Below are positions 2,025 through 9,684 of a stretch of DNA of 64,000 bases, in pieces. Numbering within the stretch: position 1 is the first letter of the stretch; the number at the start of each line of letters is the position of its first letter. Position numbers and translations under genes: made by a program. Source of the stretch: Planctomycetota bacterium (GTDB taxonomy: Bacteria; Planctomycetota; UBA1135; UBA2386); contig CANMWZ010000003.1 in the NCBI GenBank assembly GCA_947501605.1, positions 192,001 through 256,000 on the forward strand, in the 5' to 3' direction. The notes beneath the pieces are model-generated. The model saw only the letters and a program-made list of their open reading frames with translations, did not search any database and was not told where the DNA came from.

Positions 2025-2918
2025 GTGAAGATCCTCGTCATTGCTGCGGCCGTCGTTGCCACGCTTGCAGCCTGCAGCAAGCCCGATCAGAGCGGCCAAC
2101 AGAGCCAGAACCCCGGCCAGCCTCAGGGTCGAATCCTCATCCAGAACAAGGGCTCGGACACGATGCTCGAGGTCGCACAGGCTTGGGCCGAAACCTATGC
2201 CGACATCGAGACCAACGTCGGTATCGCGGTGGCCGGTGGCGGCTCACAGGTTGGCGTGACGGGCCTGATCGACGGCACGGTCGACATCGCCAACTGCAGC
2301 CGCGCCTTCAAGCCAGAAGAAGTCGAGGCCGCACGCAAGAAGGGCCACGATCCGGTTCAGCACCTTGTCGGCTTTGACGGAATCGCGATCTACGTCCACA
2401 AGGACAACCCGATCGCCGAGATCACCCTCGACCAACTCAAGGCGATCTACGCCGACGGCGGCAACGTCACTAAGTGGAGTCAGCTGGGAGTCAAGCTGCC
2501 CAGCGGTGAGGACGACATGGTTCTCGTCTCGCGCCAGAGCAACAGCGGCACCTACGAGTACTTCCGCGAAGCCGTGCTGGGCAAGACGACCAACTTCCGC
2601 CTCGGCACGCGCGACATGAACGGCAGCAAGGATGTCGTCGACCTCGTCTCCAAGGTGACTTCCGGGATCGGCTACAGCGGCCTTTCCTACGCCACGGACC
2701 AAGTTCGCATGGTGCCCGTCGTCAACAAGGACAAGAAGGCCGTGACGCCATCGATCGACGCGGTCCTCGAAGGCACCTACCCGATCGCGCGACAGCTCTT
2801 CATGTACACGATCGGAGAGCCAAAGGGCGCCGTCGCCAAGTATCTGGACTGGATCAAGAGCGATGCCGGCCAGCGCGTCCTGATGGACCGTGGCTACCCG
2901 CCGCTGCGCAAGATCTGA
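2025..2918 (+). CDS. pstS: Phosphate ABC transporter substrate-binding lipoprotein
   Basis: Lipobox LAAC; KGSDTM, GGGS..G, SRQSNSGTYEYF and YPIARQLFMY motifs; pst operon context. Confidence 0.92.
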   Translation: MKILVIAAAVVATLAACSKPDQSGQQSQNPGQPQGRILIQNKGSDTMLEVAQAWAETYADIETNVGIAVAGGGSQVGVTGLIDGTVDIANCSRAFKPEEVEAARKKGHDPVQHLVGFDGIAIYVHKDNPIAEITLDQLKAIYADGGNVTKWSQLGVKLPSGEDDMVLVSRQSNSGTYEYFREAVLGKTTNFRLGTRDMNGSKDVVDLVSKVTSGIGYSGLSYATDQVRMVPVVNKDKKAVTPSIDAVLEGTYPIARQLFMYTIGEPKGAVAKYLDWIKSDAGQRVLMDRGYPPLRKI

Positions 2919-2989: not shown

Positions 2990-4054
2990 TTGACCAGCCA
3001 CTACGAAGAACGTCTGCAGAAAGACCTGGCCTGGATCCAGGACCTCGTCGCGATCGTCGGCGCCAACATCGAGGAGGCGATTGGCAACTCGGTCAAGTCG
3101 GTGTTGTCCCTCGACCGCGACTTGGCCGCCCAGACCATCATCGGCGACTACACGGTGAACCGGCAGACGCGCGAGCTCGATCGCCTTTGCCATACGTTCG
3201 TCGCCAGGCATCTGCCATCGGCTGGACACCTCCGGTATGTGTCCTCGGTACTCCGGCTCAACATCGCCTTGGAGCGTATCGGCGACTACGCAGCGACCAT
3301 CTCACGGACAGCAGCCCAACTATCGACCGAAGCGCCGCCGATCGTGCAGCGCGACATCGAGACGATGTGCGAGCACGCGCGCCGCATGCTGCACGAAGGG
3401 CTGAAGAGCTTCCAGAACCACGACATCGCGCTGGCCAACGCCACCTTGGCTTCGGCGCGACAGTTTGCCCAGCACTTCGACAAGGTGTTCGCCGACCTCG
3501 TGAAGGAAGGCGAAGAACGAAGCCGTCCGGTCAGCGACCTGTTTTCGTTGATGGCGACGTTCAACCGCCTCGAGCGCGTCATCCACCAGGCGAAGAACAT
3601 CTGCGAAGAGACGATCTTCGTCGGCACCGGCCAACTGAAGGGCGAGAAGCTGTTCAACATCTTGTTTGTTGGCGACAAGAACAACGGCGTCAGCCAGCTC
3701 GCCGAGCACTTCACGCGCAAGGCTTTCCCGCAAAGCGGGACCTACCGGAGTGCCGGTTTTGCGCCGGCGGACGAGATCGATGCTCGCTACGTGCAGTTCG
3801 CCAAGCGCGTCGGCCTCGATCTCGGCATGGTGTGGCCGACCCCTCTATCCACGTTTCTCGACCAACTCGACGAGTTCCACTTCATCGTCGGTCTGCATCC
3901 GGATTCCCGCCAGCGCATCGGCAAGGTGCCGTTCCACACCACGCTCGTCGTCTGGGACATGGGCAGCACCGAGGATCCCGAGGAGACGTATCGTCGGCTG
4001 ACGCCGTTGGTGCGCACCCTCATGGAAAAGCTACGTGGCGAACAGGCGTGCTGA
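2990..4054 (+). CDS. phoU: PhoU with a C-terminal ArsC/LMW-PTP-like domain
   Basis: Two PhoU repeats (LERIGDYA, LERVIHQAKNICE), then ~130 aa beginning NILFVGDKNNGVSQLAE...YRSAG. Confidence 0.85.
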   Translation: MTSHYEERLQKDLAWIQDLVAIVGANIEEAIGNSVKSVLSLDRDLAAQTIIGDYTVNRQTRELDRLCHTFVARHLPSAGHLRYVSSVLRLNIALERIGDYAATISRTAAQLSTEAPPIVQRDIETMCEHARRMLHEGLKSFQNHDIALANATLASARQFAQHFDKVFADLVKEGEERSRPVSDLFSLMATFNRLERVIHQAKNICEETIFVGTGQLKGEKLFNILFVGDKNNGVSQLAEHFTRKAFPQSGTYRSAGFAPADEIDARYVQFAKRVGLDLGMVWPTPLSTFLDQLDEFHFIVGLHPDSRQRIGKVPFHTTLVVWDMGSTEDPEETYRRLTPLVRTLMEKLRGEQAC

Positions 4055-4064
4055 GACCCTGAAG

Positions 4065-5003
4065 ATGACCGCCCCGCCACCGAAGACGCGAATCAGCGCT
4101 GCCCAAGCGTTTGACCGTCGCGATTCCGCGTGGTGGCTGGATCGCGTCGCGATGATGCTCGTCTTCACCGGCGGCATCTCGACGATCCTCTTCATCGGCG
4201 CGATTTTCCTGTTCATCGCCACTCAGGGCCTCGATTTCGCGGCGACGCGACTTGCCTGGAGTGAGTTCTTCGGTTCGATCGCATGGCGACCCAACGGTCA
4301 CCCGCCTCAGTACGGTGCCGTCGCCTTGATCGCCGGGACCGCATCGATCACGGGCATCGCAATGTTCGTGGTCGTCCCGTTCTCGCTTGGCGCTGCGATC
4401 TACATCGGCGAGTTCGCTCGCGGCCGCCGCCGTGAATGGCTGAAGATCCTGATCGAATTGCTGGCTGCGATCCCGTCCGTCGTTTGGGGTGTCATCGGTC
4501 TGCACGTAATCGGCCCGGCCATGACGCAGATCTTCGGTGTGCCTTCTGGTCTCAATCTGCTGAACGCCGGCCTCATCCTCGGTCTCATGGCCGCGCCGAT
4601 CATGACCACGATCGCCGAGGACTCGCTGAAGGCCGTCCCGGATGCCTACCGCGAGGCCGCAGAAGCGCTCGGAGCCAACAAGTGGCAGGTCGTCTGGCGC
4701 GTCGTGCTGCCGCATGCTCGCCCAGGACTGAGCGCTGCGGTGCTGCTCGGTGTCGGCCGCGCGTTCGGCGAGACGATTGCAGTGCTGATGGCCAGTGGCC
4801 ACGCGATCAACCTTCCGACCTCGCTGTTCGACCCGGTCCGCACTCTGACGGCAACCATCGCCGCAGAACTCGGCGAGACCGCCAAGGGCGATGACCACTA
4901 CCAAGCGCTGTTCGTGCTCGGAGTGCTGCTGTTCGGGATCACCTTCGCCATCAACCTGACAGCCGACTCGATCGTCCGCGGCATTCGAAGGAAGAAGGCA
5001 TGA
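4065..5003 (+). CDS. pstC: Phosphate ABC transporter permease
   Basis: IELLAAIPSVVWG, EAA motif (YREAAEALGA), GRAFGET. Confidence 0.93.
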   Translation: MTAPPPKTRISAAQAFDRRDSAWWLDRVAMMLVFTGGISTILFIGAIFLFIATQGLDFAATRLAWSEFFGSIAWRPNGHPPQYGAVALIAGTASITGIAMFVVVPFSLGAAIYIGEFARGRRREWLKILIELLAAIPSVVWGVIGLHVIGPAMTQIFGVPSGLNLLNAGLILGLMAAPIMTTIAEDSLKAVPDAYREAAEALGANKWQVVWRVVLPHARPGLSAAVLLGVGRAFGETIAVLMASGHAINLPTSLFDPVRTLTATIAAELGETAKGDDHYQALFVLGVLLFGITFAINLTADSIVRGIRRKKA

Positions 5004-5887
5004 GCGGGCTCGACAACCGGTTCCTCAGGACGCCGCGCGAGCAGCGCAGCCTGACGCAGCAGAGCCTGTTCCGACTGCTCTTCTTGGTGATGACTTCCCT
5101 GCTGGTGGTGCCGGTGTTCGGCATCCTGCTCGTGCTCATCGTCCGCGGTGGGCCTGGGCTTAGCCTCGACTTCTTCCTCGACAAGCCGCGCAAGGGCATG
5201 ACGGCCGGAGGCATCTTCCCGGCACTCATCGGCACGCTGTGGCTGACCAGTGGGGCGCTGCTGCTGGCGTTCCCGCTCGGAGTGTCGGCGGCGATCTACC
5301 TCAGCGAGTACGCGCGCGACAACTGGCTTACACGCACGATCAACATCGCCATCGTCAACCTCGCCGGCGTACCGAGCATCGTGCATGCGCTCTTCGGTGT
5401 CGGCGCCTTCGTGCTCTTCCTCGACTTCGGCGCTTCGATTCTGGCGGCGTCCTGCACGCTTGCGGTCATGACCTTGCCCGTGGTGATCGTCGCCACCAGG
5501 GAGTCCCTGCAGGCGGTGCCGCATTCGTTCCGCGAGGCATGCTGGAGCATGGGCGCAACTCGCTGGCAGACCATCTGGCGCCTCGTGCTGCCCAACTCGG
5601 GCAGCGGCATCCTGACCGGCGTGATCCTGTGCATCTCTCGGGCCGTCGGCGAGACCGCACCGATCATGTTCACTGGCGCCGTCTACTGGGTCGCGTACAC
5701 GCCGGAGGGCGTGTTCGATCAGACCATGGCGTTGTCGCTACACCTCTACAACGTGTCCACCCAGGTGCCGAACGTCCCGCCGGGACTGCCATTCTCGGTG
5801 GCCTTGACCCTGATCGGTGTCGTGCTGGTCATGAACGCAACGGCAATCGCTTTTCGCATGCGGTTGCGGGGGAGGAAGCGGTGGTGA
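5000..5887 (+). CDS. pstA: Phosphate ABC transporter permease
   Basis: AAIYLSEYA, NLAGVPSIV, SRAVGETAP; ATGA overlap with pstC. Confidence 0.93.
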   Translation: MSGLDNRFLRTPREQRSLTQQSLFRLLFLVMTSLLVVPVFGILLVLIVRGGPGLSLDFFLDKPRKGMTAGGIFPALIGTLWLTSGALLLAFPLGVSAAIYLSEYARDNWLTRTINIAIVNLAGVPSIVHALFGVGAFVLFLDFGASILAASCTLAVMTLPVVIVATRESLQAVPHSFREACWSMGATRWQTIWRLVLPNSGSGILTGVILCISRAVGETAPIMFTGAVYWVAYTPEGVFDQTMALSLHLYNVSTQVPNVPPGLPFSVALTLIGVVLVMNATAIAFRMRLRGRKRW

Positions 5888-6675
5888 CGCCCGCCCCACA
5901 ACCGCCGAGCACCACCGCCGTCGAGCCGATGCTCGATGTGCAAGACCTCACGGTGCGGTACGGCTCCCACGTCGCACTCCAAGGCTGCACGCTGCAGGTG
6001 CAGCAGAACGAGATTTTCGGGATCATTGGGCCAGCCAACGCCGGCAAGACCTCGTTTCTGCGCTCGCTGAACCGCATGCATGACTTCGTGCCGGGGATGA
6101 GGATCACCGGCACCGTTCGTTTTGCTGGACGCGACGTCGAGCAGGTCCGCAACGTCTACGCCCTTCGCCGTCGCATCGGCGTGGTCTTCCCCCTGCCGGT
6201 CGGTCTACCGCTGTCGATTTACGACAACGTCGCGTTGGCACCGCGACTTCGCGGCCTCCGCAACAAGGTGGCCCTCGACGAGATTGTCGAGCGCTGCCTT
6301 CGGCGTGCGGCCTTGTGGGACGAAGTGAAGGACCGCTTGAGGAACCTCGGCTCGCTGCTCAGTGGCGGCCAGCAACAGCGGCTCACGATCGCCCGCGCCC
6401 TGTCGCAGGACCCGGACCTGCTCTTGCTCGATGAGTTCTCCATCGCTGTGGACCCTGTCACGACGATGCGCATCGAAGAGGTGCTGAAGGAACTGCGGCA
6501 GGAGATGACCATCGTGCTCGTCACCAACCTGGTCCAACAGGCTCGTCGCCTGGCCACAAGAACGGCCTTCTTCCTGTCCGGTCGCTGCGTCGAGATTGCG
6601 CCAACCGAAGAGTTGTTCACTGGTGAGGTGAAGGACCAGCGCACCCGCGATTACGTCGAGGGCCGTTATGGCTAG
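5884..6675 (+). CDS. pstB: Phosphate ABC transporter ATPase copy 1 (degenerate Q- and H-loops)
   Basis: Walker A GPANAGKTS, LSGGQQQRL, AALWDEVKDRL, TRDYVEGRYG; GTG start overlaps the pstA stop. Confidence 0.88.
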   Translation: MTPAPQPPSTTAVEPMLDVQDLTVRYGSHVALQGCTLQVQQNEIFGIIGPANAGKTSFLRSLNRMHDFVPGMRITGTVRFAGRDVEQVRNVYALRRRIGVVFPLPVGLPLSIYDNVALAPRLRGLRNKVALDEIVERCLRRAALWDEVKDRLRNLGSLLSGGQQQRLTIARALSQDPDLLLLDEFSIAVDPVTTMRIEEVLKELRQEMTIVLVTNLVQQARRLATRTAFFLSGRCVEIAPTEELFTGEVKDQRTRDYVEGRYG

Positions 6676-7477
6676 TGCGAAACCCCAAACCGCGACGGCA
6701 AACCCTGAGGCGGGGCCCAGGTGGGCAATCGAATCGAAGGGACTCAACCTGTGGTACGGAACGTTTCAGGCGCTCCGCGACGTAGACCTTCAGATCAAGC
6801 ACGGCATCGTCACGTCACTGATCGGCCCTTCGGGTTGCGGCAAATCGACGTTTCTCCGGAGCTGCAATCGCATCAACGAGCGCCTCGGCTATGTATCGAC
6901 CACGGGCACCATCCAAGTGCTCGGACAAGACATCTACGGCCCGGACATCTCGCCGATCCAGGTTCGCCGTCAAGTAGGGATGGTGTTCCAGCGCCCGAAC
7001 CCGCTGCCGCTCTCGATTCGTGAGAACGTGCTGTTCGGCCAACACATCCACCGCGACGACCGCATTCCCCGCGCCGAGGCCGACCAACTCGTCGAACGAG
7101 CGCTGCGGGAGGTGCTGCTCTGGGACCGGGTGAAGGATCGACTGGGGCGCAAAGCGACCAGTCTGTCCCTCGAAGAGCAGCAGAAACTGTGCATCGCCCG
7201 CCTCCTGCCGATGCGGCCCGAGATCCTGCTCATGGACGAACCATGCTCGGCGCTGGATCCAGAGGCCACGCGCGCCGTCGAGGAACTGATCTGGGAACTG
7301 CGCGGCAAGTACTCGATCCTCATCGTCACGCACAACATGGCCCAGGCACGGCGGGCCAGCGACGAGTGCGTGTTCATGCTCCTCGGCCGGGTGATCGAGC
7401 ACGCGCGGACCGAGGATATGTTCGTGACGCCGAAGAAGCCCGAGACCGCGGACTACATCGAAGGCCGCTTCGGCTGA
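6668..7477 (+). CDS. pstB: Phosphate ABC transporter ATPase copy 2 (degenerate signature)
   Basis: GPSGCGKST, MVFQRPNP, LMDEPCSALDP, IVTHNM, DYIEGRFG. Confidence 0.92.
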   Translation: MASAKPQTATANPEAGPRWAIESKGLNLWYGTFQALRDVDLQIKHGIVTSLIGPSGCGKSTFLRSCNRINERLGYVSTTGTIQVLGQDIYGPDISPIQVRRQVGMVFQRPNPLPLSIRENVLFGQHIHRDDRIPRAEADQLVERALREVLLWDRVKDRLGRKATSLSLEEQQKLCIARLLPMRPEILLMDEPCSALDPEATRAVEELIWELRGKYSILIVTHNMAQARRASDECVFMLLGRVIEHARTEDMFVTPKKPETADYIEGRFG

Positions 7478-7506: not shown

Positions 7507-9684
7507 TCACTGCACGAACAGCATCTCGCGGTACTTTGGCAACGGCCAGAACGCGTCGTTGACCATGGTCTCCAGCGCGTCCGCCGTCTCCCGGACCTTC
7601 TGCATGCTCGTGGCCACCTTGTCGCGGTAGACCCTCGCGTGCTCCTGCGGCGTCCCCGGATGACCTTCGGCGTGTTCGAACTGAGCGCCCAAGTCGTCGA
7701 TGCGCGCGATCAGTTGCTCGATCAACGCTGACACCGTGGCGAGACACTTGTGCTGCCCCGACACGTCGATACCGAGGGCCTTCGCTGCGGCAATGCTCTG
7801 GGCCACCGCACCCTGGTGCGCCTGGGCCGCCGGCAACAACATCGTGCGCGCGATGGAGAGACAACTGAGCCCTTCGATCGAGATCGCCTTGCAGTAGGCC
7901 TCGAACTGGATGTTCATTCGCGACTCAGCTTCCTTCGCAGTCAGGACGCCAAACCGCTCGAACATCGCCACATTCTTCTCCGCGCAGAAGTTGCCGATCG
8001 CATCCACCGCGTTCTTGAAGTTCGGCAAGCCGCGCGCCGCCGCCTCCGCGTGCCACTCGGCTGAGTAGCCATTGCCGTTGAACAGCACGCGCTTGTGCTT
8101 CCGCAGCGTCTCGATCACGACCTCATTGATCGCCGCGTCGAGCCCCTTCTGGGCCTTCAGCTTCTCGATCTGGTCGACGAGACCGGCAAGGGCGTCGGCA
8201 ACGATGGTGTTGAGCACCGCGTTGGGCTTGGCCGAGGCCTGCGTGCTGCCGACCGCTCGGAACTCGAACTTGTTGCCGGTGAACGCGAACGGCGATGTCC
8301 GATTGCGATCGGTAGCGTCGCGCGGCAGCGGCGGCAGCGCCGTCACCCCAAGTCGCATCGTGTCCTTGCGCTTCTCCGAGCGCGCCGTCGTGCCGGCGAC
8401 GATGTTGTCGACAACCTCGCTCAGCTGCTCGCCGAGGTAGATCGAGATGATGGCCGGCGGGGCTTCGTTGGCACCCAAGCGATGGTCGTTGCCGGCGTGG
8501 GCAATCGTGCAGCGCAACAGATCGGCGTGCGCGTCAACCGCCCGAATGACGGCGGTGAGCATGACCACGAAGCGCATGTTCTCGTGCGGGGTATGGCCCG
8601 GCTCGAGCAGGTTCTCGCCCGTGTCGGTCGACAGCGACCAGTTGTTGTGCTTGCCCGACCCGTTGATTCCAGCGAACGGCTTCTCGTGCAGCAGGCAATG
8701 GAATCCGTGCTTCTGAGCGACCTGCTTCAGCACCTCCATGCAAATCATGTTGTGGTCGGCTGCGACCGTCGTGCGCTCGAAGATCGGCGCGATCTCGTAC
8801 TGCTGTGGCGCGACTTCGTTGTGGCGCGTCTTGACGGGGACTCCGAGCTTCCACAGTTCGTTTTCGCACTCTTGCATGTAGGCAAGCACGCGAGGCTGGA
8901 TCGAACCAAAATAGTGGTCCTCCAATTCTTGGCCCTTGGGCGGCTTGGTCCCGAACAGCGTACGGCCCGTCGCGATCAGATCGGGGCGACGCAGATAGAA
9001 GTCGCGGTCGATCAGGAAGTACTCCTGTTCACAACCGAGTGTCGGGTAGACGTGCGTCGCCTTTTGATCCCCGAGCAGGCGCAACATTCGCAACGCCTCG
9101 CGGTTGATCGCTTCGAGACTGCGCAGCAGCGGCGTCTTCTCGTCGAGCGCCTCGCCAGTCCACGAGCAGAACGCCGTCGGGATGCACAGAGTGGAGCCGT
9201 TGGTGGTCTCCCGAAGAAAGGCCGGCGAGGTTGGATCCCAGGCCGTGTAGCCGCGCGCCTCGAAGGTCGCCCGCAGGCCACCGCTCGGGAAGGAACTCGC
9301 ATCGGGCTCGCCCTTGATCAGCGCCTTGCCGCTGAACTCCATCATCAACCGTCCATCTTCGAGGCTGGCGAAGGAGTCGTGCTTCTCGGCCGTCGAGCCG
9401 GTCATCGGCTGGAACCAGTGCGTGAAGTGCGTGGCGCCGCGTTCGATGGCCCATTCCTTCATCGCGTTGGCAACCTGATCGGCGAGCCCCGGGCCCAACT
9501 CTTGGCCTTGCGTCAGGCAGAGTTGCAGCGCCTTGAAGGCGGTTTCGGGCAAACGGGCACGCATCTGCTGCGGGCCGAACACGTTGGCGCCGAACAGCTC
9601 GGGCACACGCAGCTCGCCACGCGCGAAGGCAATGGGTTGTTTGTTGGCAATCGTCCGGATCGCAGCATCACGCTCGGCATTCAC
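7507..9684 (-). CDS. glnN: Glutamine synthetase type III
   Basis: 725 aa; THFTHWFQPMTG, GEPDASSFPSGGLRATFEARGYTAWD, DRNRTSPFAFTGNKFEFR, WPLPKYREMLF. Confidence 0.95.
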   Translation of the reverse strand: MNAERDAAIRTIANKQPIAFARGELRVPELFGANVFGPQQMRARLPETAFKALQLCLTQGQELGPGLADQVANAMKEWAIERGATHFTHWFQPMTGSTAEKHDSFASLEDGRLMMEFSGKALIKGEPDASSFPSGGLRATFEARGYTAWDPTSPAFLRETTNGSTLCIPTAFCSWTGEALDEKTPLLRSLEAINREALRMLRLLGDQKATHVYPTLGCEQEYFLIDRDFYLRRPDLIATGRTLFGTKPPKGQELEDHYFGSIQPRVLAYMQECENELWKLGVPVKTRHNEVAPQQYEIAPIFERTTVAADHNMICMEVLKQVAQKHGFHCLLHEKPFAGINGSGKHNNWSLSTDTGENLLEPGHTPHENMRFVVMLTAVIRAVDAHADLLRCTIAHAGNDHRLGANEAPPAIISIYLGEQLSEVVDNIVAGTTARSEKRKDTMRLGVTALPPLPRDATDRNRTSPFAFTGNKFEFRAVGSTQASAKPNAVLNTIVADALAGLVDQIEKLKAQKGLDAAINEVVIETLRKHKRVLFNGNGYSAEWHAEAAARGLPNFKNAVDAIGNFCAEKNVAMFERFGVLTAKEAESRMNIQFEAYCKAISIEGLSCLSIARTMLLPAAQAHQGAVAQSIAAAKALGIDVSGQHKCLATVSALIEQLIARIDDLGAQFEHAEGHPGTPQEHARVYRDKVATSMQKVRETADALETMVNDAFWPLPKYREMLFVQ

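Follow-up and report, generated by a model that had tools for sequence, protein, structure and literature searches.

Why does a bacterial phosphate-uptake operon encode a PhoU protein that ends in a phosphatase-like domain stripped of its catalytic residues, and could this domain sense phosphate? The question is raised by one gene of the window, i.e., the whole 64,000-nucleotide stretch of Planctomycetota DNA analysed here, for which the earlier note had proposed a PhoU protein fused to a disarmed ArsC/LMW-PTP domain whose P-loop binds phosphate or arsenate and gates the transporter. The way in which PhoU links the activity of Pst to phosphate status has yet to be worked out, which makes such a fusion relevant, and the available part of PMC11208175 calls the mechanism of cytoplasmic phosphate sensing unclear. 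The dead fusion proved to be real and conserved; its reading as a sensor is possible, but not the best fit. The explanation we prefer, to which we give about an even chance, is that the protein is the genome's PhoU carrying a pseudo-enzyme cap, which would serve as a structural docking surface and not as an enzyme or phosphate-binding sensor. The gene and its parts are, in window positions:

2990–4054, forward strand: phoU::pseudo-ArsC fusion gene, TTG start, open reading frame of 354 aa
2990–3634, forward strand: PhoU six-helix bundle, residues 1–215, from the predicted model and residue comparison
3629–3649, forward strand: conserved linker G214-x-x-K217-x-x-K220 (G in 65, K in 56 and K in 52 of 66 diverse members)
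3641–4051, forward strand: catalytically dead ArsC/LMW-PTP-fold domain, residues 218–354, 137 aa, from profile and predicted model
3671–3694, forward strand: degenerate P-loop, residues 228–235, with Gly at the Cys position (Asp in most relatives) and Val at the Arg position
3929–3940, forward strand: class-specific P-F-H-T, residues 314–317, before strand 4, from dead-class conservation
4031–4039, forward strand: class-specific L-R-G, residues 348–350, at the end of the last helix, from dead-class conservation

The two PhoU repeats followed by an extra domain, as described in the earlier note, were readily recovered. Pfam PhoU matched the window protein in two stretches (E 7.8e-21), and TIGR02135 (phoU_full) scored 133.4, just above its cut-off of 130.25. 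Structure prediction, which had been suggested as a check, bore out both halves: AlphaFold2 gave a mean pLDDT of 92.6 for the whole protein and 93.1 for the isolated C-terminal domain, and a Foldseek search with the model returned PhoU structures first and then ArsC. The predicted model contains the six-helix PhoU bundle, with a TM-score of 0.95 to 4q25 over 211 columns, and its whole-protein pTM of 0.78 suggests a defined arrangement of the two domains. With canonical PhoU proteins (TIGR02135; 4q25, 1t72, 2i0m, 1xwm, 1sum) the fusion shares the two three-helix repeats, the residence in a pst operon and the repeat-1 ERIGD motif, which is invariant and intact in the window; it differs from them by the additional 137-aa C-terminal domain, by the gene position between pstS and pstC and by the erosion of the acidic positions and the His of repeat 2. 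It is the sole PhoU detected in this 91%-complete genome, and most homologs are, like the 354-aa window protein, 353–354 aa long.

The fold claimed for the C-terminal domain was likewise confirmed, by profile and model more firmly than by the curated families. The proposed HMMER search with LMWPc did give a match (E 0.0012 for the whole protein and 2.6e-4 for the last 137 aa), but the PF01451 score of 21.6 stayed below the gathering score of 23.2; some homologs carry a precomputed PF01451 match. The NCBIfam ArsC model scored the window protein at 15.9 against a cut-off of 174.3. A profile of 25 C-terminal domains of the family found 26 solved sequences at E ≤ 0.1, all of them arsenate reductases or LMW-PTP-fold proteins, with 1y1l as the best match (E 1.7e-14). 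VIA-align, which is independent of Foldseek, placed the pI258 ArsC 1jf8 on top (Z 19.4, rmsd 1.5 Å over 125 residues); a Z of 14 or more was reached by 17 LMW-fold chains, and mt-SAF26, an LMWPc-fold ribosome assembly factor, was among the matches of both the profile and VIA-align. The domain thus has the fold of the thioredoxin-type ArsC proteins (pI258 1jf8; B. subtilis 1jl3; A. fulgidus 1y1l), together with their ILF, S-x-x-A-E and SAG motifs, the Trp and the Pro that precedes strand 4, but it lacks the equivalents of Cys10, Arg16, Cys82 and Cys89 and the conserved Asp105-Pro. LMW protein tyrosine/arginine phosphatases (PF01451; Wzb, YwlE, PtpA) also share the fold (Z 16–17), and their CX5R is missing from the fusion.

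With solved ArsCs and an intact PhoU-ArsC fusion as alignment references for the register of the P-loop, the window loop reads F-V-G228-D-K-N231-N-G-V234-S235-Q. Gly228 stands for the nucleophilic Cys and Val234 for the Arg, as the earlier note had stated, and Cys is found at this position in none of 125 diverse rows. The window protein has no Cys at all from residue 218 to residue 353 and thus neither of the resolving Cys. Its Asp-Pro lies three residues later than that of ArsC, and at the position of this window Asp the 120 closest homologs have Asp in 19, with a weighted family frequency of 0.12. At the level of residues, the domain is shown to be without the catalytic Cys, the Arg, both resolving Cys and the conserved Asp-Pro. 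An active enzyme was therefore ruled out, the catalytic residues being missing across diverse dead-class rows. The genome encodes two further LMW-fold genes with an intact CX5R, an ArsR-ArsC-like and a Sua5-like fusion (names from translations), so that it needs no catalysis from the pseudo-ArsC domain.

In two independent studies, contigs run across the PhoU/ArsC junction and agree with it at every base, so neither the fusion nor Gly228 is an assembly error; an assembly chimera was ruled out by these contigs and by the homologs. Contigs from an RNA library cover the operon, and an unrelated control stretch is covered about equally.

The architecture is widespread. A scan of species genomes yielded at least 508 confirmed stretches, of which the best 80 were kept, and in all 80 loci the two parts form one frame, as expected from the claim that orthologs conserve the fusion. 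The order pstS-phoU-pstC-pstA-pstB1-pstB2 was found in 61 of the 61 loci holding six genes, so that the co-occurrence with twin pstB, which the earlier note had proposed to survey, holds in every complete locus. Among the other 19, 18 are cut by contig ends and one, L060:6958-8022 (forward strand), is an orphan fusion between priA-like and Ser/Thr kinase-like genes, with no pst genes in its 10.4 kb contig. By record label the best 80 loci belong to Planctomycetota (64), Acidobacteriota (5), Chloroflexota (2) and four other phyla (1 each), with 5 unlabelled, and such bin labels may be wrong. Among 401 genomes of the window's phylum, 361 encode a PhoU and 38 match the C-terminal domain; the best 30 of these 38 loci comprise 25 dead fusions, 1 intact fusion and 4 that are not PhoU fusions. 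This patchy spread suggests that the operon moves as a unit. At 50% identity and E ≤ 0.001 the family falls into 215 clusters, the best 150 of which were examined; after P0272 (1271 aa, repeat-like match) had been dropped, 149 diverse representatives were used for counting.

Across this diversity the P-loop does not look like a site under use. Among the 125 representatives with a residue at the Cys position, Asp is found in 114, Glu in 6, Gly in 2 and Asn, Ala and Ser in 1 each; of 135 rows, 6 still have the Arg, 80 the Asn and 77 the Ser. Weighted over 362 rows, the frequencies are 0.92 for Asp, 0.05 for Glu, 0.66 for Asn, 0.63 for Ser and 0.05 for Arg. The earlier observation that Asn and Ser are kept consequently stands for the window (N231, S235), but not for the family as a whole. 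The 120 closest homologs (65–100% identity) have Asp (110) or Gly (10) at the Cys position, retain Asn in 119 and Ser in 117 and are mixed at other loop positions (A44/E40/G25; R29/K22/A21; P49/A48). Gly marks the lineage of the window, in which Asp or Glu always comes next, and since this lineage tolerates Gly, the Asp is not catalytic. Family-wide, positions 229, 230, 232, 233 and 234 vary freely, and the loop is without indels.

PstS proteins offer a precedent for an acid in a phosphate site, as their Asp accepts a hydrogen bond from protonated phosphate. A degenerate P-loop could, in the same way, still bind phosphate or arsenate through its backbone amides, Asn and Ser and thereby switch PhoU, with the loop Asp perhaps accepting such a hydrogen bond. 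The retained fold and loop length, the remaining amides, the near-fixed Asn and Ser of the close clade and the room left by Gly228 in the window's lineage would all suit this proposal, and the sensing mechanism in the cytoplasm is, in the available part of PMC11208175, still open. However, in ArsC and LMW-PTP proteins the Arg is the residue that coordinates the bound oxyanion and stabilises it, with an Asp as general acid (PMC9807832, available part). Here this phosphate-coordinating Arg is down to 5%, and the general-acid Asp is lost as well. Acidic residues account for 97% of the Cys position by weight, and Asn and Ser are only partly conserved. An acid at the floor of the nest combined with a missing Arg argues against an anion pocket. 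From these residue patterns, the oxyanion-sensing P-loop of the earlier note is weakly supported, and we consider it unlikely. An Asp frequency of 92% is nevertheless high for a mere plug and, together with the lack of indels, indicates that the loop may still do something.

One such role could be pseudo-substrate docking, where a loop of a partner protein enters the old active site and needs a negative charge at the Cys position, as in the PRL-CNNM system. According to the available part of PMC8728433, PRL requires its Cys thiolate or a substituted Asp for high-affinity binding of CNNM, so that a Cys-phosphatase scaffold regulates an ion transporter without catalysis and keeps this role upon Cys-to-Asp exchange. 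The prevalence of Asp or Glu at the Cys position would fit. Yet the residues around the old site vary, unlike those of a conserved docking pocket, the window's lineage carries Gly, and PRLs are separate, eukaryotic proteins of a different fold family, which makes the comparison one of analogy and not of homology. By this analogy, docking in the old site would be a quite unlikely role for the domain.

The residues that do distinguish the dead class lie elsewhere. F/Y315 is found in 66, T/S317 in 63, G350 in 63 and K217 in 56 of 66 dead-class members; none of them is conserved in 66 intact fusions, where the sites 315 and 317 are Gly and variable. Judged from the topology of the model, they come ahead of strands 1 and 4 or close the last helix and would therefore line the edge opposite the P-loop, beside the PhoU attachment. 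Mean-field coevolution over 362 rows (effective 171) and 354 columns was noisy and its top pairs were scattered; pairs such as N192-H316, S186-H297 and E195-K220 are hints only.

Our preferred explanation, the structural cap, would accommodate these patterns as follows. An ancestral ArsC may have lost its chemistry, with an Asp in place of the Cys thiolate, and this Asp would fill the anion nest and cap the following helix, leaving the old site plugged. Selection could then have shifted to the other sheet edge, with the linker lysines, P-F-H-T and L-R-G near the PhoU attachment, and this edge would pack on the PhoU bundle, which in the same class shows erosion of its second acidic repeat. Cap and bundle together might present a reshaped face to a partner, which could be the PhoU dimer, the PstB1/PstB2 pair or PhoR. 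Like other PhoU proteins, the fusion would damp Pst uptake and relay the state of the transporter to a PhoR/PhoB-like pair, a step that builds on knowledge of the PhoU family and on a candidate pair found elsewhere on the same contig, with scores below curated cut-offs and with the PhoR-like kinase at G000:C3:36048-37037. Less easily squared with a cap are the high frequency of Asp in a loop free of indels, the Asn and Ser kept by nearly all of the closest homologs, the occurrence of the asymmetric PstB pair with plain PhoU in 6 operons and the orphan fusion at L060.

The PhoU half indeed changed along with its appendix. E(D)XXXD metal motifs are characteristic of PhoU (PMC5686610, available part). 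By comparison with them the window protein keeps D53, D64 and E95-D99, while Glu60, Asp156, Asp199 and His200 are replaced, the ligands not being mapped to positions in the available part of that paper. The acidic positions of repeat 2 are thus eroded in the window (A156, H199, Q200), and Thr60 takes the place of Glu/Gln, next to a class-specific Arg61. All 66 intact fusions and all 8 plain PhoU proteins carry Asp156 and His200; at these two positions the dead class has Ala in 38 and Gln in 58 of 66, respectively. Position 60 is Glu in 65 of 66 intact fusions, Gln or Glu in plain PhoU and hydrophobic or Thr in the dead class. Gained in the dead class are Arg61 (52/66) and Lys202 (55/66), where the other classes have Val/Ile and Thr/Val.

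Through such exchanges a new site for anions could have arisen, either on the PhoU half or where the two domains meet, with basic residues (the gained Arg61, and Arg58, Arg89, Arg196 and Lys202) in place of the acidic metal ligands, metal-free binding of phosphate and a dead domain that closes over the site or transmits the change. The gain of Arg61 and Lys202 and the loss of Glu60, Asp156 and His200 point in this direction, but Arg58, Arg89 and Arg196 are common to other PhoU proteins, and the basic residues may do no more than form pairs with acidic ones of the cap. We regard this site as improbable.

A further perspective comes from PhoU-ArsC fusions whose ArsC is intact. At least 120 of them (P0311–P0430) match at 53–100% identity, all of the matches listed having both Pfam domains, from sources including Deltaproteobacteria, Myxococcales, Phycisphaerae and Burkholderiales. 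Their domain order (PF01895-PF01895-PF01451) is that of the dead class, but they keep the catalytic residues and the canonical PhoU motifs. Among the 120 listed, the loop is near-invariant (C118, N119, A115, R117, S118), the resolving Cys are present in 117 and 112 and the Asp-Pro in 118 and 117. A site in use evidently stays fixed, while the loop of the dead class varies even among closer sequences. The one operon examined, in genome G074 (fusion at L160:1400-2590, reverse strand), runs arsR-arsC, pstS, pstC, pstA, pstB, phoU-arsC, with a single canonical pstB and phoU last; this order would place arsenate reduction at the exit of an importer that admits arsenate.

Could the dead domain be a mere vestige of such an arsenic-defence fusion, kept only because PhoU needs it for folding or solubility? 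The existence of the intact class, with its ArsR-ArsC gene heading one operon, would provide the ancestor, and the tree is compatible with a single origin. This tree covers 56 PhoU halves, namely 27 dead-class rows (out of 30 drawn at random from the 66), 1 distant member, 20 intact-class and 8 plain ones. The dead class sits on a long branch apart from the 28 other PhoU rows (support 100/99); plain PhoU as one side of the tree has support 79/16, with only 8 plain rows. With the dead-class profile, intact fusions score a median of 49.6 and at best 59.6 bits, and ArsC domains outside PhoU reach up to 66.2; since the intact fusions thus score no better, the evidence leans towards separate origins of dead and intact fusions. 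Against a vestige speaks that the domain persists at 25–45% identity across several phyla with surface motifs of its own and that all of the 80 best loci keep it, which leaves this explanation with little probability. A distant Asp-type fusion of about 30% identity in G234 (L159:7485-8564, reverse strand) has kept the repeat-1 acids and lost those of repeat 2, occurs together with the asymmetric PstB pair and is possibly an intermediate. A stand-alone dead domain was not found among the short diverse representatives, most of which start inside PhoU and are fragment-like.

The fusion is embedded in a complete pst operon, in the order pstS-phoU-pstC-pstA-pstB1-pstB2, whose last four genes overlap:

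2025–2918, forward strand: pstS, lipoprotein-type phosphate-binding protein (TIGR02136, 229.2 against a cut-off of 206.6)
4065–5003, forward strand: pstC permease (TIGR02138, 263 against 196.45)
5000–5887, forward strand: pstA permease, overlapping the pstC stop (TIGR00974, 269.5 against 193.45)
5884–6675, forward strand: pstB1, with altered Walker A, Q-loop Gln replaced by Pro, H-switch His replaced by Asn and LSGGQ intact (65 orthologs)
6668–7477, forward strand: pstB2, with Walker A, Q-loop, Walker B and His intact and the signature LSLE[EQ] in place of LSGGQ (57 orthologs)

These features of the PstB pair are fixed: Pro, Asn and LSGGQ of PstB1 are each found in 65 of 65 orthologs, and PstB2 has Leu and Glu at the two signature Gly positions in 56 of 57, the remaining row being unreadable. 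ABC domains pair head-to-tail, so that Walker A, Q-loop and His of one face the signature of the other. Going by the motifs, the defects of PstB1 and PstB2 would all fall in one composite ATP site, the other being consensus, and the importer would be predicted to have a single working ATP site. Adjacent pstB genes in a pst-phoU locus also occur in Enterococcus faecalis, but its twin PstBs keep all motifs, unlike the window pair (PMC12096839, available part).

In the phylum sample, all 23 genomes with a PstB1 ortholog of at least 70% identity have the dead fusion. Second-tier PstB1 proteins (58–62% identity) show the same asymmetry, in 6 operons (L153–L158) with a plain PhoU downstream, 1 operon with a distant dead fusion and 1 too short to classify. 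Because the pair also occurs with plain PhoU, the asymmetric importer is a wider class, within which the fusion arose or which it joined, and the 6 operons rule out that the asymmetric pair requires the cap. A canonical pst operon or a plain phoU lies beside the asymmetric one at L100:12437-17077 (reverse strand), L153:1190-4708 (forward) and G160:C444:12864-13124 (forward), and some genomes therefore cluster both pst types.

Taken further, fusion and importer could form a self-contained Pst subtype, in which PhoU gave up part of its metal-binding acids for a captured and disarmed ArsC. This domain would read cytoplasmic phosphate, with either the old loop or a new basic interface as the site, and would gate a single-ATP-site importer. 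This broader proposal is doubtful. If true, the dead and intact classes together would trace a path of evolution that begins with the detoxification of arsenate where it leaves the transporter and ends with the sensing of phosphate, and phosphate sensing by PhoU could be approached with a protein that can be purified. Should the role of the cap be purely structural, the finding is of moderate value and consists in a new pseudo-enzyme family and a new Pst subtype of mostly uncultured bacteria. PhoU can now be compared in three natural variants, on its own, fused to a live ArsC and fused to a dead one, and a PstB pair with one dead site bears on the number of ATP that a phosphate importer needs and on whether such a site is regulatory.

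In the open-licence literature, covered at the level of listings and abstracts and without subscription papers, we found no description of the dead fusion or of the degenerate PstB pair and no paper on the intact PhoU-ArsC fusion, which is represented by database proteins only. The architecture as such is already in databases as automatic annotation, e.g., in an ESM Atlas cluster naming PF01895 and PF01451. A recent survey was confined, according to its available part, to PhoU proteins that combine two PhoU domains with no other Pfam domain (PMC13170248), so that fusions with a recognised LMWPc fell outside it.

Regarding the surroundings of the operon, a Pho-box-like pattern based on the E. 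coli consensus gave 28 matches against 51 expected and none upstream of pstS, and a search for sigma-70 promoters found none. A glutamine synthetase type III gene (window 7507–9684, reverse strand) is convergent with the pst operon and ends 30 bases from the pstB2 stop.

Other ArsC-like genes were seen along the way. Downstream of an ArsR-ArsC-like fusion with intact CX5R at L004:1141-1962 (forward strand, G000:C9) lie a GAPDH-like gene and an MFS transporter, a neighbourhood which we take to resemble the gapdh-arsJ arsenate route. At L003:412-1989 (forward strand, G000:C3) a Sua5/TsaC-like domain, named from its translation, is fused to an intact LMW-PTP. In G254 (L030:1396-3267, forward strand) an ArsC-like domain with intact CX5R is fused to PAS and sigma-54 activator-like domains, and the protein is possibly an arsenate-sensing activator of transcription.
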